Of a stretch of 64,000 bases of DNA, positions 4,364 through 60,568 are shown in pieces. The position numbers and the translations under genes were made by a program. The notes under the pieces are model-generated. The model was not told the DNA's origin. It saw only the letters and a program-made list of their open reading frames with translations, and did not search any database. The number at the start of each line of letters is the position of its first letter. Position 1 is the first letter of the stretch. The stretch lies in the NCBI GenBank assembly GCA_030740765.1, contig JASLWR010000009.1, positions 1,905 through 65,904 on the forward strand, read 5' to 3'. This stretch comes from Thermoplasmatota archaeon (GTDB lineage: Archaea; Thermoplasmatota; Penumbrarchaeia; JASLWR01).

Positions 4364-4837
4364 CTAGATCAAGTTCCTCTCGAAAACCCTCCTGTACCAA
4401 CTGACACGAAGGTAGGCCCGAGCCGTATCCTGTTGTGTGGCGGGGAAGGGTGAAACACAGCTCGCATCCGGCAGCAAATAAAACAACTTTGAGTTGTTAC
4501 CAATAGATTTTAATATTTTGAGAGACTCCTCTACAACCTCTCCATTTCCTTTTCCACCATACCATCTTCCATGTCTAAATGTCTCTAACCTATTAAACAA
4601 AACGGATATTTCCGTTTCTCCTTTTTCCCTTAATAGTTTAAATAAACCTGCATGTGTATCATTATGAATCTCATAGACCGATTCCAATTTATATGCAATT
4701 AAATGTTGAATTAAACCATAAATGATTTCCACGATTAGTGCAACGTCTTTATCGTATTCTTTTGTCTCGGATATTTTTTCGAGACTAGCTTTCAGTTCAG
4801 TGGCCTTTTGATAATGTCCTTCAGCTTTCATATTCAT
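4364..4837 (-). CDS. hypothetical protein
   Basis: 157-aa ORF with no confident domain assignment. It lies at the edge of the repeat-rich island. Confidence 0.35.
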   Translation of the reverse strand: MNMKAEGHYQKATELKASLEKISETKEYDKDVALIVEIIYGLIQHLIAYKLESVYEIHNDTHAGLFKLLREKGETEISVLFNRLETFRHGRWYGGKGNGEVVEESLKILKSIGNNSKLFYLLPDASCVSPFPATQQDTARAYLRVSWYRRVFERNLI

Positions 4838-4969
4838 CGAGCTTTCTGTCTCATAGGGACAGAATTTGACATATTTGAAGGTTTCTGTCCAATAATCCCA
4901 GAATGAAATATAATGGAAATCAGGTATTCGATAACAATAATAATCCGCCCAGACTTTTAATCATCAATT

Positions 4970-5148
4970 TCGTATAACGTCTTGCGGATTCCCGAAGTTG
5001 CGTGGGTGGGGAACATCCCTCAGGATTATCTGTCGGCGGAGGAGCAATTTGGGCGGAGGCCGAAGGCCGGGAGCCGAGAACTCGTTAGTTATGCGAGACC
5101 GTTAGGTCCGAGCATTGGGGAGGGGCGGTAGTCCCTCAACGAGCGCAG
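4970..5148. repeat. R1a: ~180-nt structured non-coding repeat element (family R1), starting tcgtataacg and containing gttatgcgag
   Basis: Aligns with 10896-11081 (R1b) at roughly 60-65% identity and with 11325-11400 (R1c). Compensatory hairpin changes are visible: gaccGTTAggtc in R1a versus gcccGATAgggc in R1b. A GGCC-loop-GGCC hairpin (ggccgaaggcc versus ggccgacaggcc) is also conserved. Confidence 0.6.
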
Positions 5149-5238
5149 TTTTGTTGGCAGAGAGTTTCTCCTAATATTACACAAATTGATTGGCGATCAT
5201 TCTATTATCCAACTTAACATCAGGTTGTTTTAGTATCT

Positions 5239-5553
5239 TCATGCAGCCTCAGGATGGACAATTTCAATTAGGATACCTTCCTTTACTTTTTTAAATAACG
5301 CGAGATCATCACTATGAATTCCGGTATTTTTCACTAATTCATTCGGTAAGGTCACCATCAGAGAACTTCCCATCTTTCGCACCTTTCGCACATTTTTTGG
5401 TCTTCTACCCGTAAGGACTTCCCACCTAAGCATTTCATTCGAAGTAAAAAAGGTCTCCTCACATTCATTACATTTCCATCCATTTATTTCTACATCTTCA
5501 CTTATCTCCGAATACTCAGAAATATCTCCATCGCACACGATACACTTTTTCAT
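5239..5553 (-). CDS. Zn-ribbon + AbrB/SpoVT-like (swapped-hairpin) DNA-binding protein; antitoxin-like
   Basis: N-terminal C-x2-C...C-x2-C zinc ribbon, then VRKMGSSLMVTLPNELVKNTGIHSDDLALFKKV, which is typical of AbrB/MazE-like domains. Paralogous to 10112-10420. Confidence 0.6.
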   Translation of the reverse strand: MKKCIVCDGDISEYSEISEDVEINGWKCNECEETFFTSNEMLRWEVLTGRRPKNVRKVRKMGSSLMVTLPNELVKNTGIHSDDLALFKKVKEGILIEIVHPEAA

Positions 5554-5557
5554 TTTA

Positions 5558-5809
5558 TTACCTCCTTCTTAGCTTGATATGGATCAATACCAACTCATCG
5601 ATTGTCTCTGCATATACCAATTCCCAGATTCCATTTTTGGTGGGCATAATGACGATCATTTTCTTTTTCGATTTCTTTTGGTGTACTCCTGATTCAAGGA
5701 TGTCTTCAACAAGGTCCAAATTCTTACGATATTTGTAATAGAGTTCTTCCTTAAAATGACCCGTTTCGATGAGTTCTTTCCCGTTATATATTATCGGTTC
5801 AAACACCAT
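5558..5809 (-). CDS. small hypothetical protein, first gene of a two-gene cassette (possible toxin partner)
   Basis: 83 aa. Related to 10420-10710 (shared G-KEL, ESG/ENGSE, KKxKKK, I-I/VMV, W/YELV/WLIG features). Its start overlaps the stop of the downstream gene, indicating an operon. Confidence 0.5.
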   Translation of the reverse strand: MVFEPIIYNGKELIETGHFKEELYYKYRKNLDLVEDILESGVHQKKSKKKMIVIMPTKNGIWELVYAETIDELVLIHIKLRRR

Positions 5810-5977
5810 TATCTCCTTTATATGTATGTTTTTATATAATAATATAGTTTTTGGTTAGAAAATAGTTCTTTGCGAAAATAATGTCCATATTCGGAAAAAG
5901 TTAAGATATGCCAATCAATTTGTAATTACGTCTTTTCCATATTATTAACCATCAATATTTACTCTCTGTCACAATTT

Positions 5978-6029
5978 CGCATAACTCCCTTATTCGCGAA
6001 TAAAAATTGCAGATAAAGGGAGTTATGCG
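5978..6029. promoter_or_regulatory. R2 copy 1: perfect 14-bp-stem hairpin (CGCATAACTCCCTT ... AAGGGAGTTATGCG) around an AAATTGCAGATAA core; candidate promoter/operator for the minus-strand cassette 5809->5239
   Basis: 56 bp (5981-6036) is identical to 12323-12378. It lies ~180 bp upstream (5') of the minus-strand gene start at 5809. Confidence 0.6.
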
Positions 6030-6279
6030 ATGTTTTCAGAAAGTTTTCACCCAAAAAGACTAAACTAAAAAATTTACAACCCGCGTTAATCCTGCTCACT
6101 CCGCCAATATCCCTTCCGCCTTTCTCACCGCCTTGTCCACCTTCGCAAAGACCCACATCAGTCCAATGACCCTAATTATTTGAATACTACGTGCAAGGAG
6201 AGGAATGCCGCTCAATTGAAAACACACTATCAACAAACGAATACAAACATACATAAAGTATTAAGCGATAGTAAATAAG

Positions 6280-9200
6280 ATGGTTGATAAAGACACACCT
6301 GCTGGCTCCCGTAAGGAGCTTGCTCCTGAGGGTGTCCGCTTTTCTATGCAGACCCCTTTGGGCTCTGCTACACCCTCGCCAAATATGGCTACGGGAGAAG
6401 ATGCATTTCCAATGCATCCGGAGGGTAACGTCCCGAGGATGCAGGTGAATTTCAATTCACCGGAGCAACGCGGGCATCGGAACGCAGTAGACCCGTCTAA
6501 CTTATCAGATGGTAACCTCGCGAGTAAAGTCGGCAAAACCGATTCCTCGTTAACATGGGACTTCAGGTACGAGGACTACGAGAAGTTCTTTCACAGCTAT
6601 CATAACCTGATGAGTTTCAAGATACAGAACATCCTTCTGGTTTCCAGCCCATACGACGCCTTCATACTCAATGAGGACGGCCGACTTTCCGAGCAGATAA
6701 TAGAAGAATATCTGGAACTCGGGCTCTCCTCGGCGCCAAGGCTGTACAGCGTCCCTTCGGGAAAGAGGGCTCTACTGGAATTGAAGAAAAGAAAATACGA
6801 TTTAGTTATTACTATGAGTCAGATATTCGACATCAACCCGGCCGAATTCGGCAGAAGGGCGAAGAAGCTTCGACCGGGGGTTCCCGTTGTACTTCTCGCC
6901 ACCGATAATATCACCGTTGCAAACTATCAGGTTCCCGGAGATCACAGCAGTTTCGACAAGGTCTTCCAATGGCTGGGCGATTCGGCTCTGTTCCTTGCCA
7001 TCATCAAGTATTTCGAGGATATAGGGAACGTCGACAAGGATACCAAGGGAGCAAATGTCAGGGTTATCGTCGTCGTGGAGGATTCGGCAAGATACTATTC
7101 CTCTTTTTTGCCAATAATATATAAAGAGGTAATGCGGCAGACCAAAGCATTGGTCTCTGAAGGCCTGAATGAGCACGAGAAGAGGATTCGGAGACGAAGG
7201 AGACCGAAAATATTGCTGGCCGAGACTTTCAAGGAAGCCTTAAGAGAATACAAAAAATATCACAAGTACATTCTAGGTATCATTACCGACATTTCCTTCC
7301 AGAGGAACGGAAAGAGGTGTATCGACGCGGGATTTAAGTTCGCGGAGAAACTCGACAAAAACATACCCGTTCTCTTCCAATCGTCCGATGAAAAACATTC
7401 CGAGCGCGCGAGGGTAATGCAGCGTCCGTTCCTCAACAAGAACTCACGTACTCTCCTCCGTGATCTGTCGGATTTTCTCACCAAGGAACTGGGATTCGGA
7501 GATTTCATATTCCGCATGCACGATGCCACTGAAATAGGAAGAGCGGCAGATCTGAAGGAGCTGGTCAAGCTCATCAGGGAGGTACCAGCAGAATCGCTCC
7601 GTTTCCACGAGAAGCGATTCCAATTCTCCCGCTGGTTGTTCGCCAGGGGTGAGTTGGACCTCGCAACGAAGATCCGCAAAAAGAAGTTCTCGGATTTTGA
7701 GTCGGTAGACGAAGTAAGAGACTTTCTCATAAACGGGATAGAGAAGACGAGAAAGAAGAGACAGACCGGCATCATAACTGATTTTTCACAGCAGAGCTTT
7801 GAGTTCGAAAGGTCTTTCACACGGTTCGGCAGAGGTTCTCTCGGTGGAAAGGGAAGGGGGATCGCTTTTCTCTCGGCCATGCTCCGCATGAGCAAGATCA
7901 ACAAGATACTGCCCGAGTTCAACATCCGTATCCCCGATACGCTCGTCATTACCACCGAAGAGTTCACCCTCTTCGTCGGGGAGAACGGGCTCGACGAGAT
8001 AGTCCATCTCGATATTTCCGACCGGGATATGGCCCACCGCTTCGTATCGGGATCATTGAGAGATGAGTTGAGGAAAGCTCTATTGAGGTACCTGGAGCAC
8101 GTTAAAGTTCCATTGGCCGTGCGCTCCTCAAGCCTTCTTGAGGACTCCCTTCATCAGCCCTTTGCAGGCATTTATTCGACATATCTGCTGCCTAACAACA
8201 GCGAAAATATTGAAGAGAGAATGGAGCTGCTCTGTTCTGCAATAAAGCTGGTTTACGCCTCGACCTATTTCCACGACGCCAAAACATATATTGAGAGTAC
8301 GTCCCAGAAAGTGGAAGAGGAAAAGATGGGTGTTGTGATACAGAAATTGGTGGGAGATGTTCATGGTGATAGGTTCTATCCTCTGTTCTCGGGGGCGGGG
8401 GTATCACGCAATTATTATCCTCTCCCTCCTCTGAAGCGGGATTCCGGTATTGCCTCTGTTGCCATCGGTCTCGGCAAGATGGTGGTGGACGGCGGTAAGG
8501 TTTTAAGCTTTTCTCCGGAAAATCCAAGGATTTTCCCAGGTTTCTCGACCACCGGGGAAATACTTCAAAATTCACAACGACAATTCTACTGCGTCGATCT
8601 GGCCCGCAGGGATTTTGATCTCACAGAGGGAGAGGATGCGACACTCAGGATTGTGAACATCTCTGACGCTAAAAAGGACGGAATACTTGACCTTACTGCC
8701 AGCGTCTATAACCCGAACGATGATATTATTCGAGATGGACCGTACCACGAGGGACACAAAGTCATAACCTTTGCCGGTATTCTGAAATACGAGAGGTATC
8801 CACTTGCAAATATTCTCCGGAACCTCCTGGAGATAGGTTCCAGAAGTCTTGGCGGTTCTGTGGAGATAGAATTCGCGGTATCGAATGGACGTGATGATCA
8901 ACTGGAGTTCCACATCCTCCAGATACGTCCCATTATATCCAACAAGGAGAAGAGCCTGGTCATGATAAAGGGAGTGGAGGATAATGAGGGGGTTATCGTC
9001 TATTCCGATAAGGCTATGGGCAACGGCTTGATCGATGACATTTCCGACATAGTCATGGTTCTTCCGTCGGAAATGGATAGAAACCAGACCCAATTGATAG
9101 CCCACGAGATCGGCGAGATCAATTCAACAATGAAGAAAGGATCATATCTCCTTCTGGGACCGGGAAGGTGGGGCAGTTTCGATAGATGGCTGGGAATACC

Positions 9201-9507
9201 CGTTAAATGGGGCCAGATATCCCGGGTCGGGGCCATTGTTGAGGCACCCATGCTGGACATTGACGTCACCCAGTCACAGGGTTCTCACTTCTTCCATAAC
9301 ATATCCGCTCTGGGCATACCCTATCTGAGCGTGTCGAGCCGTTCCACCGAAGATAGAATTGACTGGGAATGGTTGGGCAAATTGAAGTTTGAGAAGAAGG
9401 GCCGCTTTGTCAGGCACGCTCACCTTGAAAAACCGTTGATAATCAAGGTCAACGGCAAGGAGGGGAAAGGTATAGTGTTGATAAAGGAAGAATCTAACTC
9501 ATCGTAG
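6280..9507 (+). CDS. PEP/pyruvate-binding (PPDK_N / PEP-synthase N-terminal ATP-grasp) domain protein with an N-terminal receiver-like domain
   Basis: Motifs GRGSLGGKGRGIAFL and LAVRSSSLLEDS match the PPDK_N nucleotide-binding domain. An N-terminal CheY-like alpha/beta region is present (LLVSSPYDAFILNEDG...DLVITM). The true start is probably near 6610 (MSFKIQN), because the first ~80 codons are read through repeat R3. Confidence 0.7.
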   Translation: MVDKDTPAGSRKELAPEGVRFSMQTPLGSATPSPNMATGEDAFPMHPEGNVPRMQVNFNSPEQRGHRNAVDPSNLSDGNLASKVGKTDSSLTWDFRYEDYEKFFHSYHNLMSFKIQNILLVSSPYDAFILNEDGRLSEQIIEEYLELGLSSAPRLYSVPSGKRALLELKKRKYDLVITMSQIFDINPAEFGRRAKKLRPGVPVVLLATDNITVANYQVPGDHSSFDKVFQWLGDSALFLAIIKYFEDIGNVDKDTKGANVRVIVVVEDSARYYSSFLPIIYKEVMRQTKALVSEGLNEHEKRIRRRRRPKILLAETFKEALREYKKYHKYILGIITDISFQRNGKRCIDAGFKFAEKLDKNIPVLFQSSDEKHSERARVMQRPFLNKNSRTLLRDLSDFLTKELGFGDFIFRMHDATEIGRAADLKELVKLIREVPAESLRFHEKRFQFSRWLFARGELDLATKIRKKKFSDFESVDEVRDFLINGIEKTRKKRQTGIITDFSQQSFEFERSFTRFGRGSLGGKGRGIAFLSAMLRMSKINKILPEFNIRIPDTLVITTEEFTLFVGENGLDEIVHLDISDRDMAHRFVSGSLRDELRKALLRYLEHVKVPLAVRSSSLLEDSLHQPFAGIYSTYLLPNNSENIEERMELLCSAIKLVYASTYFHDAKTYIESTSQKVEEEKMGVVIQKLVGDVHGDRFYPLFSGAGVSRNYYPLPPLKRDSGIASVAIGLGKMVVDGGKVLSFSPENPRIFPGFSTTGEILQNSQRQFYCVDLARRDFDLTEGEDATLRIVNISDAKKDGILDLTASVYNPNDDIIRDGPYHEGHKVITFAGILKYERYPLANILRNLLEIGSRSLGGSVEIEFAVSNGRDDQLEFHILQIRPIISNKEKSLVMIKGVEDNEGVIVYSDKAMGNGLIDDISDIVMVLPSEMDRNQTQLIAHEIGEINSTMKKGSYLLLGPGRWGSFDRWLGIPVKWGQISRVGAIVEAPMLDIDVTQSQGSHFFHNISALGIPYLSVSSRSTEDRIDWEWLGKLKFEKKGRFVRHAHLEKPLIIKVNGKEGKGIVLIKEESNSS
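6298..6545. repeat. R3 copy 1: dispersed repeat with an internal GATGCATT(T/C)(T/C)CAATGCATC hairpin, interrupted by two insertions
   Basis: ctgctggctcccgtaaggagcttgctcctgaggg is identical to 17464-17497. gagaagatgcatttccaatgcatc...atcggaacgcagtagacccgtctaacttatcagat matches 17498-17560 with a few substitutions. Confidence 0.7.
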
Positions 9508-9522
9508 TTTTCGGTTAATCCC

Positions 9523-9852
9523 TCATCCGTTTACCGTATCGTATCCGGCCCCTTTCCATTCCACAAAGCTTCCGAAATCATATACTTCCATGAATTTTAA
9601 TTCGTCCATTATTTCCAGGGTCTGACCGCTCCGATTCCCACTTCGACAGTAAATAATATATGTACCGTTCTTGTCCAGTTTATTTAGCTCGTCCCTGAAT
9701 GTCTCGCCATAGAAATCGATATTGATGGAATTTACCAATCGATCATCTCCGAACTCGTTCGAGGTCCTGACGTCCAGGATAATTAAATCGGAATTTACCC
9801 TTATCATTTCATTGGCATCGTCTATCGATATTTTCTCGATGATCGGACCCAT
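9523..9852 (-). CDS. single-domain rhodanese-like sulfurtransferase
   Basis: Rhodanese fold motifs (ILDVRTSNEF...YCRSGNRS) with an active-site Cys in a CRxGxR loop. A possible N-terminal TM extension exists in frame upstream, but without an ATG. Confidence 0.75.
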   Translation of the reverse strand: MGPIIEKISIDDANEMIRVNSDLIILDVRTSNEFGDDRLVNSINIDFYGETFRDELNKLDKNGTYIIYCRSGNRSGQTLEIMDELKFMEVYDFGSFVEWKGAGYDTVNG

Positions 9853-10111
9853 TTCATTTTGATTTTTTTCGGTATCTTCCTCGTTTAGAAGGACATACGA
9901 AACTGCACCGAGAGCGATACCGACCAGGACTGCGATGAAAAAAGTTAAACTTTCGGCTTAAAAGCATAGCACGATTCTGACATTTTAACCTCAATCCTGC
10001 ATTTCCAACCCTGTGGAAATTCCAAGTATTTAGGAGGATTTACATTCAAATTTTAGAGAGAATGAAGTTCCAGATATTGAGTTTCGATAATTGGTTCGGA
10101 TTCAAATTGAC

Positions 10112-10420
10112 TTATTGTAAGACTTTCAATCTGATCTCTTTTGTCTTGGCTTCAATGATGACCTTAGAATACGGATTCAGATGATAGAGGTCCGCAATAG
10201 GTTTTGGGATCCTCACAGCCAAACTATTCCCCGTTTTGAACAGAGATAACTCTTTGCGCTTCTTCATATATCTGAAGAATTTTACGATAACATCAACATC
10301 ATCCGAATTGCTATGAGTATTACCGCATTCACAGCGCCAACCCCGTATCTTGAAACCTTTTAAATCGACATCATCAACTTCTGTCATTTCTTTATCGCAG
10401 ATATTGCACTTGTGAGCCAT
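10112..10420 (-). CDS. Zn-ribbon + AbrB/SpoVT-like DNA-binding protein (paralog of 5239-5553)
   Basis: CNICDK...WRCECGNT zinc ribbon followed by an LFKTGNSLAVRIPKPIADLY swapped-hairpin-like segment. ATGA overlap with the upstream gene. Confidence 0.6.
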   Translation of the reverse strand: MAHKCNICDKEMTEVDDVDLKGFKIRGWRCECGNTHSNSDDVDVIVKFFRYMKKRKELSLFKTGNSLAVRIPKPIADLYHLNPYSKVIIEAKTKEIRLKVLQ

Positions 10421-10710
10421 TATTTCCCTCCTCTCAAGATTTTCATTTTATCTTTGGTTGCTTTAATCTTCCCCACATGTCCGATCAACCAATATTCGAC
10501 ACGATCTTCAACCATGACGATTAGGATGTGTTTTCCTCTATGACACCATTTTTCAGTAAATCCCTTTTTCCGTTTCTTGACTTCACTTCCGTTCTCCATT
10601 ACCCATATCACATCATCTATGGTGATATCACACTCTAACATCTCCTTATCGGCATTCCGATAGTTATCCACTACAAGTTCTTTACCCTTCCATGTCTGCG
10701 TTGGAACCAC
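10420..10710 (-). CDS. small hypothetical protein (paralog of 5558-5809), first gene of the cassette
   Basis: 96 aa. Same gene order and 4-nt overlap as the 5.2-5.8 kb cassette. Confidence 0.5.
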   Translation of the reverse strand: MVPTQTWKGKELVVDNYRNADKEMLECDITIDDVIWVMENGSEVKKRKKGFTEKWCHRGKHILIVMVEDRVEYWLIGHVGKIKATKDKMKILRGGK

Positions 10711-10895
10711 TCCAAAGGATTATATATATTAATATCATGCATAATATATATTATTTTCTATGAAATGTAAAAAAGCATGATGTGATTTTCTTCTGGAACT
10801 TCATTATCGACTATTCGTTCTGTAGTTATTCTTCGATTTTCATTCTATGTGGAAATCCTCCTAATTGAATATTTCCACCGAGCGATTCTGGTATT

Positions 10896-11081
10896 ACGTA
10901 TAACGATTGGCAGGTTCACGAACTTCCGTCGGGGGAAACAATTCATTGGTATCGGTATTGGCGGGGTAGGAATTTGGGTGGAGGCCGACAGGCCGAGAGC
11001 CTGAAACCGGCTAGTTATACGAGCCCGATAGGGCCAAGAATTCGTGGTTGGAAAGGGGGTTAATTGGGGGAGAATTCACAG
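10896..11081. repeat. R1b: ~185-nt structured repeat (family R1), starting acgtataacg and containing gttatacgag
   Basis: See R1a for the alignment and compensatory changes. Confidence 0.6.
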
Positions 11082-11324
11082 TTTATCAGAATCGCCGAAA
11101 AATGCCTTCGGGACGTAGCTTTCCGTTGGCGAAGGCCAGCAGGAAAATTTCGGAAAACATGCCTTATACTAAAACGTAGTTTTAATCCCTATCCCTTTTT
11201 CTTGGTCCGGTTTCCGAAGTAGCGGAGGAATTATTTTTCGATCTTACCTTATGGTAGCTTAAAGTTCTTTGTTCATATGATTTTCTCCATGAATAAAGTC
11301 ATGGGGAAATTCCGATTTACGACT

Positions 11325-11400
11325 GCCACAAGTTATCCGAGGGCGTTAGCTCCGAGCATTGTAGGGGGATAGTTCCCTACAAGCGCAGAGTTCCCGACCA
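11325..11400. repeat. R1c: partial copy (3' two-thirds) of the R1 element
   Basis: caagttatccgagggcgttagctccgagcattgtagggggatagttccctacaagcgcag aligns with gttatgcgagaccgttaggtccgagcattggggaggggcggtagtccctcaacgagcgcag in R1a. Confidence 0.55.
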
Positions 11401-11443
11401 TCTTGCTTTCCTGGGGTTAGGCTAATTGAATAATACAATATAT

Positions 11444-11875
11444 TTAAAGTTCTGGCACTTTTTCATACCCTATTTTAGAAAAGTCGCTATCAAAAGTAAA
11501 TATATAGTTGATACCATATTTTTTCATATATGTCACAATACTCCAATCAACGAAGGAAAGTTTAGTTTTTCTTTCTTCAATATTTTCCCAGATATTTAAA
11601 AAATTTAGAGAATTAAATGGATGAATGATTACATTTGATTGCAATATTCTTCCCATAATATCCATTGCTGCTCTATAATTGTAATTGTACAATAAAAAAG
11701 TATAGGTTTCTTGTAGAACCAACTCTGATGTATGTATGGGTCCAAAATTTAGTTCACCGTTTTTATTTTTCTCTATGAATGATCTTGCTTTTTTATGGTG
11801 GATGTCTTTTTTCTCATTTAATGCCACCCAAGCACTGGTATCTATAAAAATAGGTGGATATTTTATTCTTCCCAT
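11444..11875 (-). CDS. vapC: PIN-domain ribonuclease toxin
   Basis: IFIDTSAWVAL N-terminal acidic motif and FVDWSIV...IFTFDSDF C-terminal acidic residues. The ORF-track start (11935) is probably too long; MGRIKYPPIFIDTS fits a VapC start. Confidence 0.75.
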   Translation of the reverse strand: MGRIKYPPIFIDTSAWVALNEKKDIHHKKARSFIEKNKNGELNFGPIHTSELVLQETYTFLLYNYNYRAAMDIMGRILQSNVIIHPFNSLNFLNIWENIEERKTKLSFVDWSIVTYMKKYGINYIFTFDSDFSKIGYEKVPEL

Positions 11876-11876
11876 A

Positions 11877-12131
11877 CTACGACATCCCATACACAATATC
11901 ATCCACAGTAGCTTCCCTCTTCTTAGGTTCATCACTTCGAGGTTCTAAGCCGAAACAAGAGGCACCCCAATCCACCTTTTTCTTTTTTATCTCCCCATCC
12001 AAGAGTTCTCTTAAAAGAGCCGAGACGGTGATTCCCTTCTCTTCTACAATACTTCTTATCGTCTCAACTTGTTCCTCTGGAAACTTTGTACTCAACACTA
12101 CTTCTGCCATAAGTATACCTACGTCTACCAT
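11877..12131 (-). CDS. vapB: ribbon-helix-helix/CopG-like antitoxin
   Basis: 84-aa ORF immediately upstream of vapC and overlapping it, with an RHH-like region ITVSALLRELL. Exact start uncertain. Confidence 0.55.
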   Translation of the reverse strand: MVDVGILMAEVVLSTKFPEEQVETIRSIVEEKGITVSALLRELLDGEIKKKKVDWGASCFGLEPRSDEPKKREATVDDIVYGMS

Positions 12132-12319
12132 TCTATATATAACTTTCCTTCGGACTTAAAGATTATTTTATTAGGGAGAGGGAGAATGACAACTTATCGC
12201 CTAACCACAAAAGTCAATTATATTTTGTGATGGTCGGGGATTTCGCATACCTACTCGTGAATTGATATGAAAGATCTTGAAACTTTCGGCGTTTAAACCA
12301 TAGGACGATTCCGATATTT

Positions 12320-12371
12320 CGTATAACTCCCTTATTCGCGAATAAAAATTGCAGATAAAGGGAGTTATGCG
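12320..12371. promoter_or_regulatory. R2 copy 2: the same 14-bp-stem hairpin (CGTATAACTCCCTT ... AAGGGAGTTATGCG), ~190 bp upstream of the vapBC operon start
   Basis: 12323-12378 is identical to 5981-6036. Both copies sit 5' of minus-strand TA-like operons. Confidence 0.6.
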
Positions 12372-12515
12372 ATGTTTTTACGAAAAGTCTTTCTCGTGAG
12401 GATCCCGTCGACGTAATCGATAACCCCATTATCGGTGTACAACGCCACTATCCACCGCAAAGCCGTTATTTCTTCAGTTCCGCACCACACGCCCTCAAGT
12501 GAAACTCCTCGCTCT

Positions 12516-13727
12516 TTACTGGACCCCGAGCAGGTCCGCCATGCCGATCACATCAATGCCATCAATACTTTTCTGGGGCTTTCTAGCAACCATAATTCTC
12601 TTTTTCACTTTTCGGCTTTTAACGGCCTTAATATTTTTGATGTCGTTATCTACTATTGAGTCAAGATATTTGATCTCATAGGCAGTTCCCTTAACGAGAA
12701 AATCCACCTCTTTACCTCCTTGCTCCAAGTAAGTTACCTCCCCTTTTTTCCTGAGAGCAAGATACATTAAATTCTCAGCCAGAGCCCCCTTTGCAATACC
12801 ACCGCTAATAATGCTGAGAATCCCATTGTCACATACATATACCTTTTTTGGAGAATAGATACGTTCGTTGGGAGTACCTTCTTTTAAAACAATGTCTATA
12901 AGGAATGCCTCCTGAAAAAGGTTAAGGTAGTTCGTTACCGTCTCTCTTGAAAGTCCCAGTACCCTTGAAAGTTTTGAGGCCGTCAAGCGTCTTCCGGCTC
13001 TCTGGCATATAAGGTAAAACATTTTTTTCATAAGGACAGGGGTCTGAATATTGCATCTGGGTACAATATCCTTGTAAATGATGTCCTCAACCACATCTTC
13101 TATATATTGCGGATCATCGGTGAGCACGTATTCCGGCATTCCCCCCGTCACCATGAAATCCTCGATGTACTGTCCCAACAGATATCCTTCAGATGGGTTT
13201 ATATCCAGTGATCTGAACTGAATATACTCGTGAAAGTTCAAGGGATCAACATTCATCCTCGCATTGCGTCCCACCAGATGACCGCTCCTGTGTTTTATTA
13301 TCAAACTGTTTGAGCCGGTGGCAATGATAAAGAGATTGGGCTCCAGATCATAAAGCACTTTCAATTCTTTTTCGAAGCCCTCCCTTGCATGAACCTCATC
13401 GAAGAGGATATAGGCCTGTTGTTCCCTGCCAATTCGGAATATGCTTCGATATTCATCCACAACATTCAAAAGAGACATCTCTGAAATGGCGGGGTGGTCA
13501 ACTGATATGAAAAAAATATTGGAAGCATCAGTATCTTTCAGCTTTTCAGCAACAAACTGCTTCATTATAGTGGTCTTGCCACAGCGCCTAAGGCCGTATA
13601 CAAATACCAATCGTCGAGTAGAAAGTTTTTCATCCAATTCCTTTAGATAAGATGTCCGTTTCACACCCGGGAACTTGAACTCGCCCTCCCACCATGGATT
13701 ATATCTGTAGAGCAGTTCCTTGTTCAT
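12516..13727 (-). CDS. archaeal-type AAA+ ATPase (COG1373/DUF4143 family)
   Basis: Walker A GLRRCGKTT, Walker B ILFDEVH and a DUF4143-like C-terminal half. The internal start MNKELLYRY (13727) is preferred over 13778, because both AAATTGCA(G/C)ATA motifs (13770, 13802) then lie upstream. Confidence 0.75.
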   Translation of the reverse strand: MNKELLYRYNPWWEGEFKFPGVKRTSYLKELDEKLSTRRLVFVYGLRRCGKTTIMKQFVAEKLKDTDASNIFFISVDHPAISEMSLLNVVDEYRSIFRIGREQQAYILFDEVHAREGFEKELKVLYDLEPNLFIIATGSNSLIIKHRSGHLVGRNARMNVDPLNFHEYIQFRSLDINPSEGYLLGQYIEDFMVTGGMPEYVLTDDPQYIEDVVEDIIYKDIVPRCNIQTPVLMKKMFYLICQRAGRRLTASKLSRVLGLSRETVTNYLNLFQEAFLIDIVLKEGTPNERIYSPKKVYVCDNGILSIISGGIAKGALAENLMYLALRKKGEVTYLEQGGKEVDFLVKGTAYEIKYLDSIVDNDIKNIKAVKSRKVKKRIMVARKPQKSIDGIDVIGMADLLGVQ

Positions 13728-13769
13728 ATACAAATAATCTCCCTTCATCTTTAAATAATTTGCTAATGA

Positions 13770-13813
13770 AAATTGCACATATTGTCAAAAAGCGCTAATA
13801 GAAATTGCAGATA
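13770..13813. promoter_or_regulatory. two tandem AAATTGCA(C/G)ATA motifs (13770-13781, 13802-13813), the same core as in R2, upstream of the AAA ATPase
   Basis: The core AAATTGCAGATAA is shared with 6005-6017 and 12347-12359. On the coding (minus) strand it reads TTATCTGCAATTT followed by A/T-rich sequence, consistent with an archaeal BRE/TATA-like promoter. Confidence 0.45.
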
Positions 13814-13975
13814 ATTGGCAAAAGTGTCGTTAAGCTCAGCACCCCTCCATAAATATGTTGTCTGTACCAGGGCTTTGATCACAAATTTGTCTCTTATTTC
13901 AATTCCATTTCACTTATCAGGAACGCTAAGATTATTAATAACTGACGATGTCGCTTTCCCGAAGGTTCAGAGTAT

Positions 13976-14900
13976 TCACTTTTTCAATTCCGCACCGCAC
14001 GCCCTGCAGTGAAATTCTTCCCGTTCTACCGGAGCCTTGCATACGGGACACTTCCCAATCGATCCTCGAGCCATTTTCTTGGTGCTGGCAGAGCTGGGCA
14101 TTCCAATTATTTTTGGCACCCCATTTGCATCTTCCTCAACATGGATCTTCCAGAGTTCGCCGTACTTTTGTACCACAGGAAGTATATCCGGGGGAAGTAT
14201 GAGAGTTCCGTCATTTGAGATGAAAACATCCCTATCTTCCTCGAGCTGGTTCAGATCCATTTCCACGCCGTGCTGTCCGATGAAACGGCCGTCGCGAAGC
14301 TCCAGGGACCTGTCGGTATAGGAAGCGATATGTTTAGAATGGGTTACGACCAAGCAGGTGGTACCGAGCTTGTCTCTGAGCCCGGATATTATTTCCATGA
14401 CATTCTCGGCATTGCGGTAATCAAGATTCCCGGTGGGCTCGTCCATGAGAAGAACTGCCGGATCGTTTGCCAGAGCCCGGGCTATGGCAACTCTTTGCCG
14501 CTCACCACCGCTCAGATGGCTCGGGTGAGCCTTCATCCGATCCTCGATTCCCAGGAGTTTCATGAGTCCCGTTGCCTTCTTAACCGCCTCGGGCCGCTTC
14601 ATGTTTGCAAAACGTAAGGTCTGGACGACATTGGCGAGAACGGCAAGGTTCTCTATTAGATTGAAGTCCTGGAAGATCCAGCCCACATCATGACGGCGTA
14701 TCTCGGTAAGTTGAAAATGTTTCATATCCTTCAGGTTCTTGCCGTTCACCTCGACTTCTTCGCCTTAGGGGGAAAACAAAGCGCCGATGACATTCAACAA
14801 GGCTGATTTCCCGCAGCCTCGGAAATAAAAAGAGGAACCGCCAGGGACAAGAATACCAACAGTGCGGCCACTACCAGTGCAATACCCATATTTTTGGTTT
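13976..14900 (-). pseudogene. ABC transporter ATP-binding protein (MacB/LolD-like) with a C-terminal Zn ribbon; N-terminal nucleotide-binding region disrupted by an in-frame TAA and a degenerate Walker A
   Basis: Intact Q-loop through H-loop ([31 protein letters not shown]) from a GTG at 14749. In the same frame upstream the sequence reads ...VPGGSSFYFRGCGKSALLNVIGALFSP*GEEVEVNGKNL, with TAA at 14765-14767 on the complement. No upstream ORF of 60 aa or more appears in the track. Confidence 0.5.
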
Positions 14901-16852: not shown

Positions 16853-19800
16853 GGCTCATCCTCTTCCCCATGAACTGTCGAGGATTCCACCCTTCCCCCT
16901 TTCTTGTTCAGAATATCTTCCTCGATCTCTTCTATCTTTTTTTCCCGCTTCTCGATTTCCAGCTCGATCTCTTCCAACTTTTCTTCTGCCTTGTCGAGCT
17001 CTTCTTCAGCATCTTCGATATCGTACTTCACGTCTTGCAGATACTTGTATACGTTGGCATTCGGGTTTGGCCGCCTGCCCTTTGCACCACACTTTTTGCA
17101 GTGAAGATGTAGTTTTTCCTCGTCGGTTTCCGGCAGTTTCACCTTTGCACCACATTCAGGGCAATTCATACTTTTCCGTATGTCAGCCTCTATCTCCTTC
17201 TTCTCTTTCAGGAAAGCATCCAGCACATCTTCCTTAACTTTCTTGTCTTTTTTTAGACTCTCAAATTGAAGCCCTGTTTCTTCAAGTTCTTTTGTCAGTT
17301 CATCGGCACTGGTTTCCAGCACCAATATCTCTTCGTCGAACTTTTTCACATCGGGGTCAAATGAAGATTTATCCTTTTTCTTTCGATCCCGTCTTCTCCC
17401 CTTCCTTTTTGATCGTCCTTTCTCTTCAGTTCTTTTTTCGGACTTATCAAGTAAAGGCGACCCTGCTGGCTCCCGTAAGGAGCTTGCTCCTGAGGGAGAA
17501 GATGCATTTTCAATGCATCGGAACGCAGTGGACTCGCCTAACTTGTCAGATAGTGACCTTACAAGTGAAGTCTTCAATGCTTCTATCTTTATCCTTTTCT
17601 CTCTCCACTGTTGTGTGCTCTTCTTCAATTTGGCTTGTCTCATTACTATAATCACAATAATAAATATGACCAGGATCACACCTACGGCGATATTGAGGAT
17701 CATAGGTGTATTGGATTCCGGGACATTGACGGTAATGGAGTCGGCAAGGATACTCCCAAACTCATCGGTGGTCTCCACTATGATCTCATGCTGGCCACCG
17801 CTCAAGGTGAGGGTGAGCTCCCCGCCGGTATACTGACCAAAACTGATACCGTCCACAAAGACCTCGCACTCTACGGCCTTCAGGTTCCATGTCAGCTCAA
17901 ATTCATCGTCCAGTATCTCATCATTTCCAGGAGATAGTATGAATAGACTGTAGGAGCCGTCCAGGCAGTACAAACTGTTCCCTTGTGAGATCAGGATATC
18001 TGCCTTTCCATCGGTGTTGACATCCCCGTTATCTTCCGCCACCGCATATCCTATGGGAATCTGTCGCAGCAACGTACCTGTTTCCGGATCCACCACTTCC
18101 AATACGAAGACCTCCGCGCCATCGATCTGGGCGGTCCTCTGTACCATCATATCCCTGATCCCATCGCCGGATACATCACTTAAGACCGAGACACCGAAAA
18201 CAGGCTGTGCCATGTTCCAATCGGTAAATTCCGTTTGTTCTTCGTATTGGATAACATTAAGCTGTTCTCCGGTCTTTCCATCCAAGATATGGATGTCGGC
18301 ACCCAGGGCTCCCCATCGCCCGGAACCAACGGCTATATCAGCTGTTCCGTCTCCGTTTGTATCTTCAATGATCTTCAAAGGATTGCCGCCGCTGAATGCA
18401 AAAGAAAAAATCTCAGTATTTACCCAAATCTCCTGGTGGGTTTGTCCGTCGATTGCCATTATTTGTGGAGGTGCCCTCTTGCCCCCGGTTTTTTTGAAGA
18501 GCAGGGCATCCTTGACCCCGTCGCCATTTAGGTCCTGGAGGAAAGGCCCTTCCTCAGGGTGTTCTCCCGGAGCAAAATTGTCCATGGGCTGGTTTCCCGC
18601 CCCTACGGAAAATCCCGGACCAAGGGCGCTGCCGTCCAGGCCGCTCAGGACATGGCATTCATGCTGCTCTTCGTTTTTATCATCACCAGGAACAACCGAG
18701 AAATACATCACATCCGATCTGCCGTCCCCATTGAGGTCCTCAATTAGCGCGAAACTGCCGGATAATACCTCATCATTGTCCGGACTGCTAAGGTTCTCGG
18801 GATATCTCCAGGAGAAGTTTGCCGACATACTGCCGTTTGCAGATATGTTTGAAAAGTATATCAGTGATGAATAATCGGTTATCAGTAAACCTGGTTGAGC
18901 ATCATCCCCCACAGCGAATGTCTGTGGATACCATGGCAGCCAGCTGATATTATTCTGGGTCATGTTCCACAATTGCGAGCCGTCCGCCCCGTCCAGAAGG
19001 TAGACGTTGCCGCCCTGACCCCCCACGAAGATATCGGGAATTCCGTCACCGCTGAGATCGGAACCCGGTTCCAATGACGCAATCCTTCGGTTTACCAAAT
19101 TCCAATATTCATAGAGGCCTTGAGATGCATTTAGGGAAGAATTGAAAAAGAGCTGAGAGCTTACGGGAGCCTCCCATGCCAGGCTGCCGTCGGCTCCGTC
19201 TATGACGAACACGAATGTATGATTTCCCATCTCCAGAAGGTCATCCGGCACGTCGCTTTGCCGATAGGCCAGGATGTCGATCTTTCCGTCACCGGTAAAG
19301 TCGCTTTCCATGCTGATGTCCCTGGCACCCTTGGTCGGGAGATCGGCGAGAGATACGGTATGTTTCCAGAGCTCTTCGCCGGTGACTCGGTCGACGGCCT
19401 GGAGGGTCCTTACATGAGAATTTGAGCCCAGGGAAGAAAGGATCACAAGGTCTCCGGCCCCGTCGTCGGTAATGTCCGAGATGTCCTGCACCTCCACACT
19501 TTCCATGTTGTTCACATCCCACAGGACTTCCTGGGCCAGGGGATCCACCACCAGAAGGCCAGACGTTCCAAGAGTCAATATCATCAACTGACCCTGGGAA
19601 CCGTCGGGATTGTTAAAGAATTCAAGCTGAAAATTCCCCAGCCAGGCATTATCGAGGATGGGATGATCGAAAAAAGGTTCAAGTTCCTTGGTTTCGGTAT
19701 CCACCAATTTGATCTCATTCTTATGCGGTATAACAAGAGAATAATTGCCATTGCCGTTCCAGTTCACCAAAGCTTCGGTTGACCATAAAACCGGAATATC

Positions 19801-23442: not shown

Positions 23443-23682
23443 TGCGCTCTAAAGACAAGTTCAAAATCCACATTCTTCTACATTCTTCCTTAAGTTCATG
23501 GCGGTTCGTTGAGTAATATGTCTGCAAATCGGGTTTTCAGAACTTGACTTCGTTTATTCTTCCTCTGAATCAATACAAATTTGAGCGCCAAACATTTTTT
23601 TTATATTTGTTACTCTTAACGGGTACACAGTTTTTTACATTTTCCATAAAATGAGAGGGATTTCGTATAACTAATATATTAC

Positions 23683-23790
23683 ACCGCACCGCATGCATTT
23701 GTAGATAACGCCATTCACGAATTTGATCTGGTCAAAACCACATTTCGGGCTGTTGTTGTCTTTTCCAGGTGAATTGACCTTTAGTTGTTC
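23683..23790 (-). pseudogene. remnant of a C-terminal zinc-ribbon module (fourth copy of the CPxCG-x-D-x-IKF-V-[DN]-GV-x-YKC-x-RCG family), no ATG start
   Basis: Reverse translation gives ...NSPGKDNNSPKCGFDQIKFVNGVIYKCMRCGV*, which matches the C-termini of 24371-24874, 24913-25188 and 25149-25658. Confidence 0.45.
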
Positions 23791-23988
23791 CACATCCTTT
23801 TTTAAATTGCCTATGGACGGACTATATCACAGTGTGTTTACATAATAATACTGGAAGGCATTTCTTACAATTATTTAAGAATAACGAACCAGTAGCACTA
23901 CTTGAATCAATCATTCCTCTCCTATATTTGATAGCTCTGGATGCACTCGGTCAAGATATGAAAGAAAGGTGGATCAAGAATTAAATGA

Positions 23989-24370: not shown

Positions 24371-24874
24371 TTAATATATTTTCCCGCACCGCGCACATTT
24401 ATAGTTAACACCATCGATAAATTTGATCTGGTCGAACCCGCACTTCGGACAATTTCCATATGTACCCGGCGATTGGATCTTGCGACGTTCGCCATCTTTT
24501 TTAAATTTGATTTTCTCCACACCAAGCAATCTAACGCAGATGAAACATGTTATCACCGCCATGACGATTAAAGGGACGATCAAGTAAGCGGCAGGCACCA
24601 ATAAGCTGTAGTGTTCAAGATCAATAAAATATATCAATGACATCTCGATTACGGCATACCCCATGCCTATCAAGGACACCCAAATGCCTATCATTGGACC
24701 CCAGTAATCGGACTTCCAGACACTAAATGCCGTTGCAAATAATAATGTCGTCAACAACCTGTCGGGAATAACCCAGGTCACCGTGTGCAAACTTACCATC
24801 ATAGATAGTATTGCCATCAAGACAAAGAGAACCGCGCAGATGATACGTATGGATTTATTATCATTCTCGTTCAT
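24371..24874 (-). CDS. four-TM membrane protein with a C-terminal zinc ribbon (paralog family)
   Basis: TM helices followed by CPKCGFDQIKFIDGVNYKCARCGKIY. Confidence 0.6.
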   Translation of the reverse strand: MNENDNKSIRIICAVLFVLMAILSMMVSLHTVTWVIPDRLLTTLLFATAFSVWKSDYWGPMIGIWVSLIGMGYAVIEMSLIYFIDLEHYSLLVPAAYLIVPLIVMAVITCFICVRLLGVEKIKFKKDGERRKIQSPGTYGNCPKCGFDQIKFIDGVNYKCARCGKIY

Positions 24875-37029: not shown

Positions 37030-37790
37030 AACCAAATAGTAGTAAACTACCAGCCCCTAAAGGAGCTGGCGTTTTAAGCGTTGTGCCGTTAATTCTAGGC
37101 AAAGTCTGTCAACGAAGTTTGGCCGATTAGGCCGACGGTCTTCCTTACCTTGAAGTATTCATAATCATCTCCTTGCCAGTGTTTACGTTGTTGTCTCTCG
37201 ATGTAGAATTGGACCATTTCGCCCGTGACTCGGCCAACGGATTCAAAGAAATAACCATCGGTCCAGAACTGATCGCCCCATAAGTGCCTTTTGATCGTAT
37301 TCCAACATTTCTTGCGAATCCAGTATGAGGTGTAGCCTTTCAATTGGCCTGCAATATATGAGACACTGTAATTCTTGCATCCAACTAAAAATACATGGGC
37401 ATGGTCGGTTCCAAATTCCATCGCACTTATTGATATACCCAAATGTTTTGCCTTCTCTTCCATCATCTCTCTACAAACGGCTTGAACTTCTGGATACTCG
37501 AAAACAGGGCGTCGGTACTTCGGTGTGAACTGCATATGGAAGTTACATCCTCCGAAACTGTGTTTAGCTCTCGCTAATCGATTCATGTTGTAGACCTCCG
37601 AAAACTATTTGAAAGCCTACACTAATACCGGTTTGCCTCGTGCCACGAGGCGCGCCGAAAATTTAGCGTTTGACGGTCAAGTAGACCTCCGTGTTAGACT
37701 TTCAAAACGGGAATGTCCTCAACCGGTTTAAATCTTCGGCGCCACAATTCATCCAGAGCCTAAAGGCACTGGCGTTCTTGTGGCTATTTT
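37030..37790. mobile_element. IS200/IS605-family insertion sequence (tnpA only)
   Basis: tnpA gene plus subterminal hairpins on both sides with a conserved CTAAAGG(A/C)RCTGGCGTT core: CCAGCCCCTAAAGGAGCTGG at 37050-37069 and CCAGAGCCTAAAGGCACTGG at 37753-37772. The ~0.75-kb size is typical of IS200. Confidence 0.7.
37095..37586 (-). CDS. tnpA: IS200/IS605 family Y1 (HUH) transposase
   Basis: HUH motif HAHVFLVG and catalytic Tyr region YIAGQLKGYTSYWIR. Confidence 0.85.
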   Translation of the reverse strand: MNRLARAKHSFGGCNFHMQFTPKYRRPVFEYPEVQAVCREMMEEKAKHLGISISAMEFGTDHAHVFLVGCKNYSVSYIAGQLKGYTSYWIRKKCWNTIKRHLWGDQFWTDGYFFESVGRVTGEMVQFYIERQQRKHWQGDDYEYFKVRKTVGLIGQTSLTDFA

Positions 37791-60375: not shown

Positions 60376-60568
60376 CTCCTTTGTTTGGATTTGAATATTC
60401 TTTAAAAGTTATTTATTATCGGTGCTATACACGATCCCAGGATTCTTCCGAATATACGTTATGGTCTTTGTCTCGTGAGTCAATGAACAACCCACATTTG
60501 CCCGTTATCACTCCGTTGCTCGCTCTGCTACGCAACACCTTTGAGGCGTTGCTGCACCCTCAGCATCC

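Follow-up and report, generated by a model that had tools for sequence, protein, structure and literature searches.

Hairpin elements at the boundaries of small gene modules in a Thermoplasmatota archaeon and their likeness to integron attC sites

The attC sites of integrons are recombined as folded single strands, in which R″ and R′ boxes (RYYYAAC/GTTRRRY) and L boxes are accompanied by a central spacer that stays unpaired, by extrahelical bases and by a terminal structure that is variable (Nivina et al. 2016, PMC5027507). Cleavage falls within the AAC triplet, and the bottom strand, rich in purines, is the more stable of the two (PMC5027507). Archaeal clusters of attC sites, mostly without an integrase, have been reported, among others from Thermoplasmatota (Ghaly et al. 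2022, PMC9668308, Data S1, S3, S9), with toxin-antitoxin (TA) genes as their commonest annotated cargo (PMC9668308). Archaeal attCs selected for IntI1 recombination assays include GTATAAC...GTTATAC from Hadarchaeota and GCATAAC...GTTATGT from Hydrothermarchaeota (PMC9668308). Here we analyze 64,000 nt of a Thermoplasmatota archaeon (contig JASLWR010000009.1; the whole stretch is called the window) and a hairpin element in it, R2, which, together with a longer relative, R1, we tentatively read as a non-canonical attC-like recombination site of a cassette array.

Short recombinase sites also bound the pdif modules of Acinetobacter plasmids, which are discrete modules, often TA pairs, flanked by 28-bp XerC/XerD sites with a 6-bp spacer. 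Repetitive extragenic palindromic (REP) sequences are high-copy, G+C-rich stem-loops of 20–40 nt linked to RAYT transposases. A further class for comparison, the miniature inverted-repeat transposable elements (MITEs) and the composite elements that they flank, is the subject of a review (Delihas 2011, PMC3184786).

Structure of the R2 and R1 sites

The window holds two copies of R2 and two of R1.

R2a: 5974–6036, minus strand; candidate hairpin junction site with arms at 5977–5991 and 6016–6030, loop at 5992–6015 and inner palindrome at 5990–6003
R2a tail: to about 6050, minus strand; weakly conserved
R2b: 12316–12378, minus strand; arms at 12319–12333 and 12358–12372; identical to R2a at 62 of 63 positions
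R1a: 4967–5098, minus strand; candidate long junction site downstream of the TA1 operon; 98.2 bits with the R1-derived model described below
R1b: 10893–11023, minus strand; candidate long junction site between the vapBC module and a second AbrB/MazE-type TA module; 96.4 bits with the same model

A first-pass annotation of this DNA had reported that 5981–6036 and 12323–12378 are identical, which holds exactly within the wider repeat listed above, and the similarity continues with indels about 15 nt further rightward (78 nt at 93.6%). At up to three mismatches a 52-mer of R2 matched these two places only in the window, compared with no match in 100 shuffles. The stem, originally given as 14 bp, was found to be 15 bp and perfect in R2a, with arms TCGCATAACTCCCTT and AAGGGAGTTATGCGA around a 24-nt loop that contains the inner palindrome TTATTCGCGAATAA. 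R2b has one G·T pair, at 12322 T; this is the sole difference between the copies and falls in that stretch of the 3′ arm whose sequence changes along with the module downstream. The R2 hairpin is the longest local inverted repeat of the window, and its DNA folding against shuffles gave z = −7.1 for R2a and −4.6 for R2b. In gene orientation (minus strand) R2a reads TCGCATAAC...GTTATGCGAAAT, and on the plus strand R2 is followed by a run of 4–5 T. From R″ to R′ the site measures 54 nt and forms a single unbroken helix without an internal loop, in which the central 8–9 bp are invariant and the outer 3 bp are broken exactly where the downstream module differs.

The R1 set comprises four sites, two in the window and one each in L199 and L200, which are overlapping contigs of the same European Nucleotide Archive (ENA) project and 99% identical in their overlap. 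All four share one layout, 95–132 nt long: a 9-bp R box, an asymmetric loop (2–3/6 nt), a 10-bp L box and a variable center of 45–80 nt. In gene orientation R1a has the R box TCGCATAAC/GTTATACGA, a 3/6-nt asymmetric loop and the L box CGAGTTCTCG/CGGGAATCCG around its variable center. Across the two helices 89.5% of cells are paired, compared with 13–42% in slid controls, and six pairs are changed on both sides, compared with 2.8 ± 1.2 in shuffles (5/500); the R1 of L200, for example, carries CACATAAC/GTTATGTG instead of CGCATAAC/GTTATGCG. On the window plus strand, complementary to the genes, R1 has a GC skew of +0.27/+0.29 against a local background of about −0.1, and purines make up 57–59%. 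This strand folds better by 8–16 kcal/mol with RNA parameters and by 3.4–3.6 kcal/mol with DNA parameters, and wobble pairs favor neither strand.

R2 (54 nt) and R1 (about 130 nt) have in common the 9-bp termini TCGYATAAC/GTTATRCGA, and their centers differ. Read in gene orientation, both run TCGYATAAC...GTTATRCGA, usually followed by AAT. The half-site CGYATAAC occurs nine times in the window against 2.4 expected, as inverted pairs at 4971/5088, 5978/6022, 10897/11014 and 12320/12364 plus one solo copy, and the spacing is 117 nt in both R1 pairs. It had been noted before that this half-site begins R1 at 4971 and 10897, which is right; the solo copy lies at 23664, not at 23669 as then given. 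The extended 12-mer ATTTCGYATAAC is always on the plus strand. A covariance model derived from the four R1 sites only found R2a and R2b as its next best window matches, on the same strand as R1 (minus strand: R2a 20.2 bits, E 0.05, and R2b 18.1 bits, E 0.15; plus strand: 13.5 and 11.2 bits), and no others in the window or in ten related loci. To judge from these shared termini and model scores, R2 and the longer R1 are one family.

Apparent replacement of gene modules at the R2 3′ arm

The genes between 4 and 31 kb of the window are nearly all on the minus strand, and the modules next to R2 and R1 are small.

TA1 module: 5224–5881, minus strand; an 83-aa gene and a 104-aa zinc-ribbon/AbrB-like gene with their own promoter region, between R2a and R1a
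vapBC module: 11444–12131, minus strand; a PIN toxin and a small upstream gene, between R2b and R1b
AAA_14/DUF4143 ATPase: 12516–13727, minus strand; PADLOC candidate system PDC-S01 (E 5.6e-67), with 22-mer repeats upstream and R2b downstream
TA2: 10112–10710, minus strand; second AbrB/MazE-type TA module, downstream of R1b

R2a is placed between a TA-like pair (5239–5809) and a divergent phosphoenolpyruvate (PEP)/pyruvate-binding gene, and R2b between the 3′ end of the ATPase gene, 138 nt after its stop, and vapBC. All R1 and R2 sites, including those of L199 and L200, are co-oriented with the genes. R1a and R2a are 0.9 kb apart, R1b and R2b 1.3 kb, and four sites lie within about 5.5 kb in L200/L199. 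The order R2–cargo–R1 is found with four different cargos: the TA1 operon and vapBC in the window, a NosD-like gene in L199 and a methyltransferase in L200, where R1 begins 18 nt after the methyltransferase stop codon.

In two independent cases the downstream module was seen to change at the R2 3′ arm. The first case compares the window with L162, a contig of the same ENA project as L199 and L200, in which the PEP-binding/rhodanese/ABC region is orthologous at approximately 85% and R2 occupies the corresponding position. The alignment of the two starts on the PEP side, passes the loop and ends within the far arm, where, in gene orientation, the window has GGGAGTTAT followed by GCGAAAT and L162 has GGGAGTTAT followed by CACAAAC. 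Past this breakpoint L162 has a different MazE-type gene, and the flanks show no residual similarity. A left-flank similarity between R2b and L162 that was suggested by MAFFT was not above shuffles. Over 49 nt of R2 core the window and L162 differ by 2 changes, compared with 85% identity in the surrounding intergenic DNA. L162 also lacks window 9930–13975 (TA2, R1b, vapBC, R2b and the ATPase) and has another small gene there instead.

The second case is the array of L199 and L200, which runs RHH_8 and AbrB-like genes, R2, methyltransferase, R1, RHH_12 and PIN_2, MazE, R2, NosD-like gene, and M and R1, where M is an extra module of two small hairpins. The unit of antitoxin 3′ part, spacer and R2 is 93% identical between its two occurrences up to GGA(G/T)TTAT, and then the NosD-like module stands in one and the methyltransferase module in the other. 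Both R2 copies lie about 158 nt after an antitoxin stop, and the L199 copy has an internal loop (read by eye) and a bulged G. We infer that recombination at the site caused these replacements. It had also been suggested earlier that the repeats are the ends of a mobilizable cassette: R1 and R2 do sit at module boundaries, with replacement at the R2 3′ arm, and they are shared junctions rather than the ends of one fixed cassette.

The TA1 module (5224–5881) occurs at 80–81% nucleotide identity in three other, unrelated genomic contexts with its homology sharply bounded; on this comparison either the module has moved or its surroundings were replaced.

M module next to R1a: 5099–5152, minus strand; two small hairpins with compensatory changes (pairs read by eye)
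M module with truncated R box (GTTATCCG on the plus strand): 11322–11388, minus strand; downstream of vapC, with a model match of 10.5 bits at 11309–11340
M module copies other than that next to R1a: 11331–11388 (within the preceding entry), minus strand, and L199 1874–1928

Every copy of the M module directly adjoins an R1-type site on the R″ side.

The chief competitor of this attC-like reading is one of MITE-type ends. R1 and R2 could be two size classes of a lineage-specific MITE or foldback family that share the transposase-binding termini TCGYATAAC and landed in permissive intergenic DNA of a TA/defense island, and an extension of this proposal is that R1/R2 pairs can mobilize the intervening DNA as a composite element. 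The elements are indeed short, with perfect terminal inverted repeats of 9–15 bp, unrelated flanks and common termini in both size classes, and a unit of R2, cargo and R1 is closed on the outside by inverted termini. That R2a and R2b are nearly identical is as expected from recent copying, and a family confined to two close lineages in few copies also fits. Additionally, contigs from other assemblies end precisely where R2a stops on the right (L176, window 6036) and where R1a starts on the left (L180, 4966); such ends are expected if the repeats branch the assembly graph, which hints at further copies outside the window. We nevertheless consider MITEs rather unlikely. No direct repeat of the kind left by target-site duplication flanks R2a, R2b, R1a or R1b, every copy has the same orientation relative to the genes, and no transposase whose ends match theirs was found. 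The outer 3 bp of the terminal repeat have been exchanged in L162 along with the flank; mobility of the whole element would not lead one to expect this. The R1 centers are strongly divergent, yet the two helices are kept by compensatory changes, and in L199/L200 the DNA upstream of R2 is constant while the cargo and R1 change. As to copy number, beyond the two R2 and two R1 of the window a metagenome scan recovered the R2a locus only: with the two R2 arms it returned 41 hairpins, of which 2 were R2, both at that locus, and the rest were unrelated and terminator-like.

The window has an IS200-type Y1 transposase gene (37095–37586) with hairpins of its own, CCAGCCCCTAAAGGAGCTGG (about 37042) and CCAGAGCCTAAAGGCACTGG (about 37757). 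These flanking hairpins are unrelated to R2, and R2 as an IS200/IS605 end or as a REP-like derivative of this transposase was rejected. A Xer/dif-like core, TTTCGCATAA-CTCCC-TTATTCGCGAA, was also rejected; R1 has no second half-site at that spacing. Likewise rejected were an att-site duplication around the 6.3-kb segment from R2a to R2b, given no integrase and an L162 that has R2a without R2b, and a tRNA-linked att site, because no tRNA or tmRNA genes were found.

Searches in other collections placed the family no more widely. No match to an R2 23-mer was found in a viral collection, and the family pattern matched once in each of two viral contigs without other similarity, where we estimate that about 3 matches are expected by chance. 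Neither R2, R1 nor the complete R1–TA1–R2 unit had a match in the plasmid and phage collections. A match in Methanoperedens (L016) to a 15-mer in the genome collection was judged coincidental, a 15-mer being so short that it yields chance matches only. Orthologs of the PEP-binding gene at 62–66% identity showed no conserved synteny. Over 20 contigs from many samples match the window at 99.5–100%, and window 4501–13747 is 99.9% identical to NCBI contig JASMGI010000670.1.

Promoter, operator and transcript readings of R2

The first-pass annotation had favored R2 as a shared promoter or operator of a TA/defense regulon, lying 180–190 bp 5′ of the operons. Measured from the near edge to the annotated start codons, the distances are 165 nt (5809) and 185 nt (12131), and across the loci R2 lies 62–185 nt from the next start codon, a spacing that is not fixed. 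The conserved region upstream of TA1, which holds a TATA-like AAAAGTATATTA, spans 45–72 nt before the start codon and leaves R2 outside, so that the TA1 core promoter is likely about 120 nt from R2a. The vapB TATA-like box, read by eye, is next to the start and about 175 nt from R2b. TA1 homologs in the three other contexts have the same promoter region without CGYATAAC, the 22-mer or an arm, and therefore the TA1 module works without R2. The R2 copies of L199 and L200 keep the hairpin and lack the AAATTGCAGATA (TGCAAT) core, R2 shares its arms but not its loop with R1, and identical 63-mers before two unrelated TA families cannot be autoregulatory operators. By these comparisons R2 is most likely not the promoter of the neighboring operons.

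What speaks for a regulator concerns the ATPase gene. The sequence AAATTGCASATA occurs four times against 0.76 expected, at 6004, 12346, 13770 and 13802, and the earlier observation that the core recurs twice 5′ of the ATPase thus holds for the last two. The true similarity at the R2 loop is a wider 22-mer, which has four occurrences in the window and none elsewhere.

R2-loop 22-mer pair: 13761–13814, minus strand; copies at 13761–13782 (17/22 matching) and 13793–13814 (20/22), 32 nt apart, directly 5′ of the ATPase gene

Local alignment of R2 with these repeats scored 36 against a shuffle maximum of 35 (0/1000). The pair may be either a decayed third R2-type site at a module boundary or a protein-binding repeat. 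We read it as the probable remains of a third R2-type site because an ABC 3′ end followed by R2-type sequence is found on both sides of the ATPase. Here the ATPase module is flanked by two ABC 3′-end copies, the genuine ABC 3′ end standing before the 22-mers and a decayed copy (about 75%) of the ABC ATPase gene's last codons lying just downstream of the DUF4143 ATPase gene (12470–12526 versus 13980–14036). The homologs of the ATPase, with 54% identity at most, are too distant for tracing the 22-mer. A regulatory role of the repeats is possible: they lie just upstream of a plausible B recognition element (BRE) and TATA box (GCAAA TTATTTAAA, read by eye), about 22 nt before the ATPase start at 13727, a position at which an archaeal activator or repressor would bind. 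One regulator binding the AAATTGCAGATA-containing 22-mer at R2 and also controlling the ATPase gene would fit these repeats, and the R2 core is better kept between the window and L162 than its intergenic surroundings. Set against the distant core promoters, the TA1 homologs lacking R2 and the R2 copies lacking TGCAAT, we regard a shared promoter or operator as highly improbable, and the ATPase repeats are the only remaining point in favor of a regulator site.

Further matches to the family motifs occur singly.

Solo 12-mer ATTTCGTATAAC: 23660–23671, minus strand; in gene orientation equals GTTATACGAAAT, the 3′-arm motif; a 234-aa gene lies 218 nt downstream
Near copy of the solo 12-mer, ATTTCGCATACC: 12240–12251

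A 138-nt direct repeat, 70% identical between 23672–23809 and 24372–24509, occupies two neighboring intergenic or 3′-terminal regions amid small minus-strand ORFs (open reading frames), and its first copy begins right after the solo ATTTCGTATAAC.

A transcribed role was considered as well, in which R2 and R1 would be cis-acting RNA hairpins that terminate or stabilize the upstream transcript or insulate modules, like REP sequences and bacterial interspersed mosaic elements (BIMEs) in bacterial 3′ untranslated regions. The R1 and M hairpins lie 18–90 nt past cargo stop codons, and R2b and the R2 copies of L199/L200 also follow stops, at the distances given above; structure is kept with compensatory changes, and R2 has its T run on the plus strand. 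R2a and its L162 copy, however, are not 3′ of any co-oriented gene, their neighbor being the divergent PEP-binding gene, and the gene strand has no T run after the hairpins. The mRNA-sense strand of R1 folds worse by the 8–16 kcal/mol noted above, and wobble pairs, as said, favor neither strand. An Rfam 15 scan of the window gave no match at the gathering score, and when relaxed to E ≤ 5 it gave chance-level matches only (e.g., mir-4477, 27.8 bits versus a gathering score of 74). RNA hairpins would leave the exchange of modules at the arm unexplained, and we hold this function to be quite improbable.

A 65-aa ORF called across R2a (5959–6156, minus strand) is present in public protein collections (P0121), and we consider it almost certainly spurious; the peptide translated across R2 found itself only among 1.8 billion representative proteins. 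A micro-ORF of 12–14 codons from the ATG after the hairpin was rejected, as every difference between the window and L162 alters an amino acid.

Several other features of the window were noted. The 5′ part of the PEP/pyruvate-binding gene has a 216-nt in-frame insertion (6307–6522) that is absent from the L162 ortholog, and pieces of it (45, 26 and 63 nt; 81–96% identical) recur on the plus strand within a 1417-aa minus-strand ORF (17452–17577). The JGI contig L139 is 99.7% identical to window 5615–6488 and then, over L139 874–1644, diverges inside this insertion; it also has a 36-nt stretch resembling window 60529–60564, and the same motif is in L162 at 733–764. Strain-level polymorphism was seen at 4501, inside ORF 4364–4837, where some assemblies agree with the window (157-aa ORF) and others carry a gene of 119/121 aa and, after it, one for a Polbeta-type nucleotidyltransferase; the two are probably a HEPN/MNT-like pair. 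Large surface-protein-like ORFs contain two sets of four tandem coding repeats (46806–47760 and 53498–54395), with periods of about 270–294 nt.

Comparison with attC sites and other described systems

R1 and R2 most likely work like attC sites by analogy of structure and context, and we do not file them as canonical members. R2 is most likely a boundary element at which small TA and defense modules swap in and out of the archaeal chromosome. As we picture it, R2 (the short site, 54 nt) and R1 (the long site, 95–130 nt) would be structured junction sites in chromosomal arrays of small, self-promoted gene modules. One DNA strand would fold into the hairpin, and a site-specific recombinase would cut the conserved AAC/GTT triplet of the 3′ arm, whereupon the module downstream of the site could be excised, inserted or replaced, as at an integron attC. 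One predicted recombinant junction would join the R2a body to the downstream flank of R1a (plus strand: AATCATCAATTTCGTATAACTCCCTTATTCGCG). A broader proposal, which we think unlikely, is that R1 and R2 stand for a non-canonical class of recombination sites made of folded DNA, not described before, that drives cassette exchange in Thermoplasmatota chromosomes through a divergent integron-type integrase or a different recombinase. Standard attC detectors would be blind to such sites, and archaeal integron-like cassette platforms would then be broader and more varied than surveys have so far shown.

A number of observations weigh against an attC-like site. A canonical archaeal attC covariance model, a crude one built from 6 published archaeal attCs, gave no match at R1 or R2, and its best match in the window lay elsewhere (E = 1.6). 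R1 and R2 lack the canonical AACAA spacer, the ..CAGCNGAC L″ motif and extrahelical bases, and their helices show no consistent bulges. At 54 nt R2 is just below the attC length range of 57–141 bp, and its helix shows no covariation. The bases after GTTAT are semi-conserved (RYGAAAT-like), and for this reason the breakpoint can be placed only to about 10 nt. The TA1 homologs in three contexts have no R1 behind them, so that the site does not always move with the module, and at three of the four R1 sites an M module sits between the stop codon and the site. The families assigned to the 32 larger window ORFs include no tyrosine recombinase, only an unrelated IS200-type Y1 transposase, and the R1/R2 family was seen, in few copies, in two close lineages only, the window species and the ENA project contigs (L162, L199 and L200).

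If R1 and R2 are recombination sites, they would belong to a cassette-exchange system that reshuffles TA and candidate defense genes within an archaeal population that is cosmopolitan and nearly clonal, and the attC models on which integron surveys rely would miss it. This would extend the recent topic of archaeal integrons, and the 54-nt and approximately 130-nt sites would offer concrete assay substrates. If they are only MITE-type repeats, they form an ordinary lineage-specific repeat family. Either way the annotation is corrected, in that R2 is not taken as an operon promoter, nor the 65-aa ORF as a gene.

Among described systems, the pdif modules resemble these arrays in their half-sites, which are similar to ...GCGCATAA; unlike pdif, R1 and R2 have inverted half-sites 36 or about 110 nt apart that form hairpins. 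REP sequences and BIMEs are likewise short extragenic palindromes, often after stop codons, and form mosaics of hairpin modules (compare M with R1). R1 and R2 differ from them in being few and larger, without a RAYT, and in being tied to module replacement. With MITEs they share a small, non-coding, intergenic and structured form with terminal inverted repeats, shared ends with different interiors, and the capacity to bracket genes; they differ in that neither a target-site duplication nor a parent insertion sequence was seen, copies are few and all oriented alike, the helices show compensatory changes, and the breakpoint lies within the terminal repeat.

The closest likeness is to attC sites and to clusters of attC sites lacking integrases (CALINs). 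Here the differences are that R2 is a perfect unbroken hairpin under the usual minimum length, that a conserved extension (CGAAAT) follows the 3′ arm of R1 and R2, that the two-hairpin M module precedes most R1 sites, and that the modules carry their own promoters. Both R1 and R2, on the other hand, are imperfect palindromes ending in ...AAC and GTT..., and their GYATAAC/GTTATRC each match the attC consensus (RYYYAAC ... GTTRRRY) at 6 of 7 positions with AAC and GTT in place, being identical to the R boxes of the archaeal attCs selected for IntI1 assays (PMC9668308). R1 further has an R box, an asymmetric unpaired spacer (the 3/6-nt loop), an L box and a variable terminal structure or center, where R2 is a continuous helix without a spacer; R1 is also within the attC size range (95–132 nt), and its bottom strand is purine-rich and folds better. 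At least two co-oriented sites lie within 4 kb of each other with short ORFs of the same orientation between them, often TA pairs, and no adjacent integrase. The cargo, TA pairs and defense candidates, is typical of cassettes, and relatives carry different neighboring modules once past the 3′ arm, with conservation in both comparisons reaching ...TTAT of that arm.

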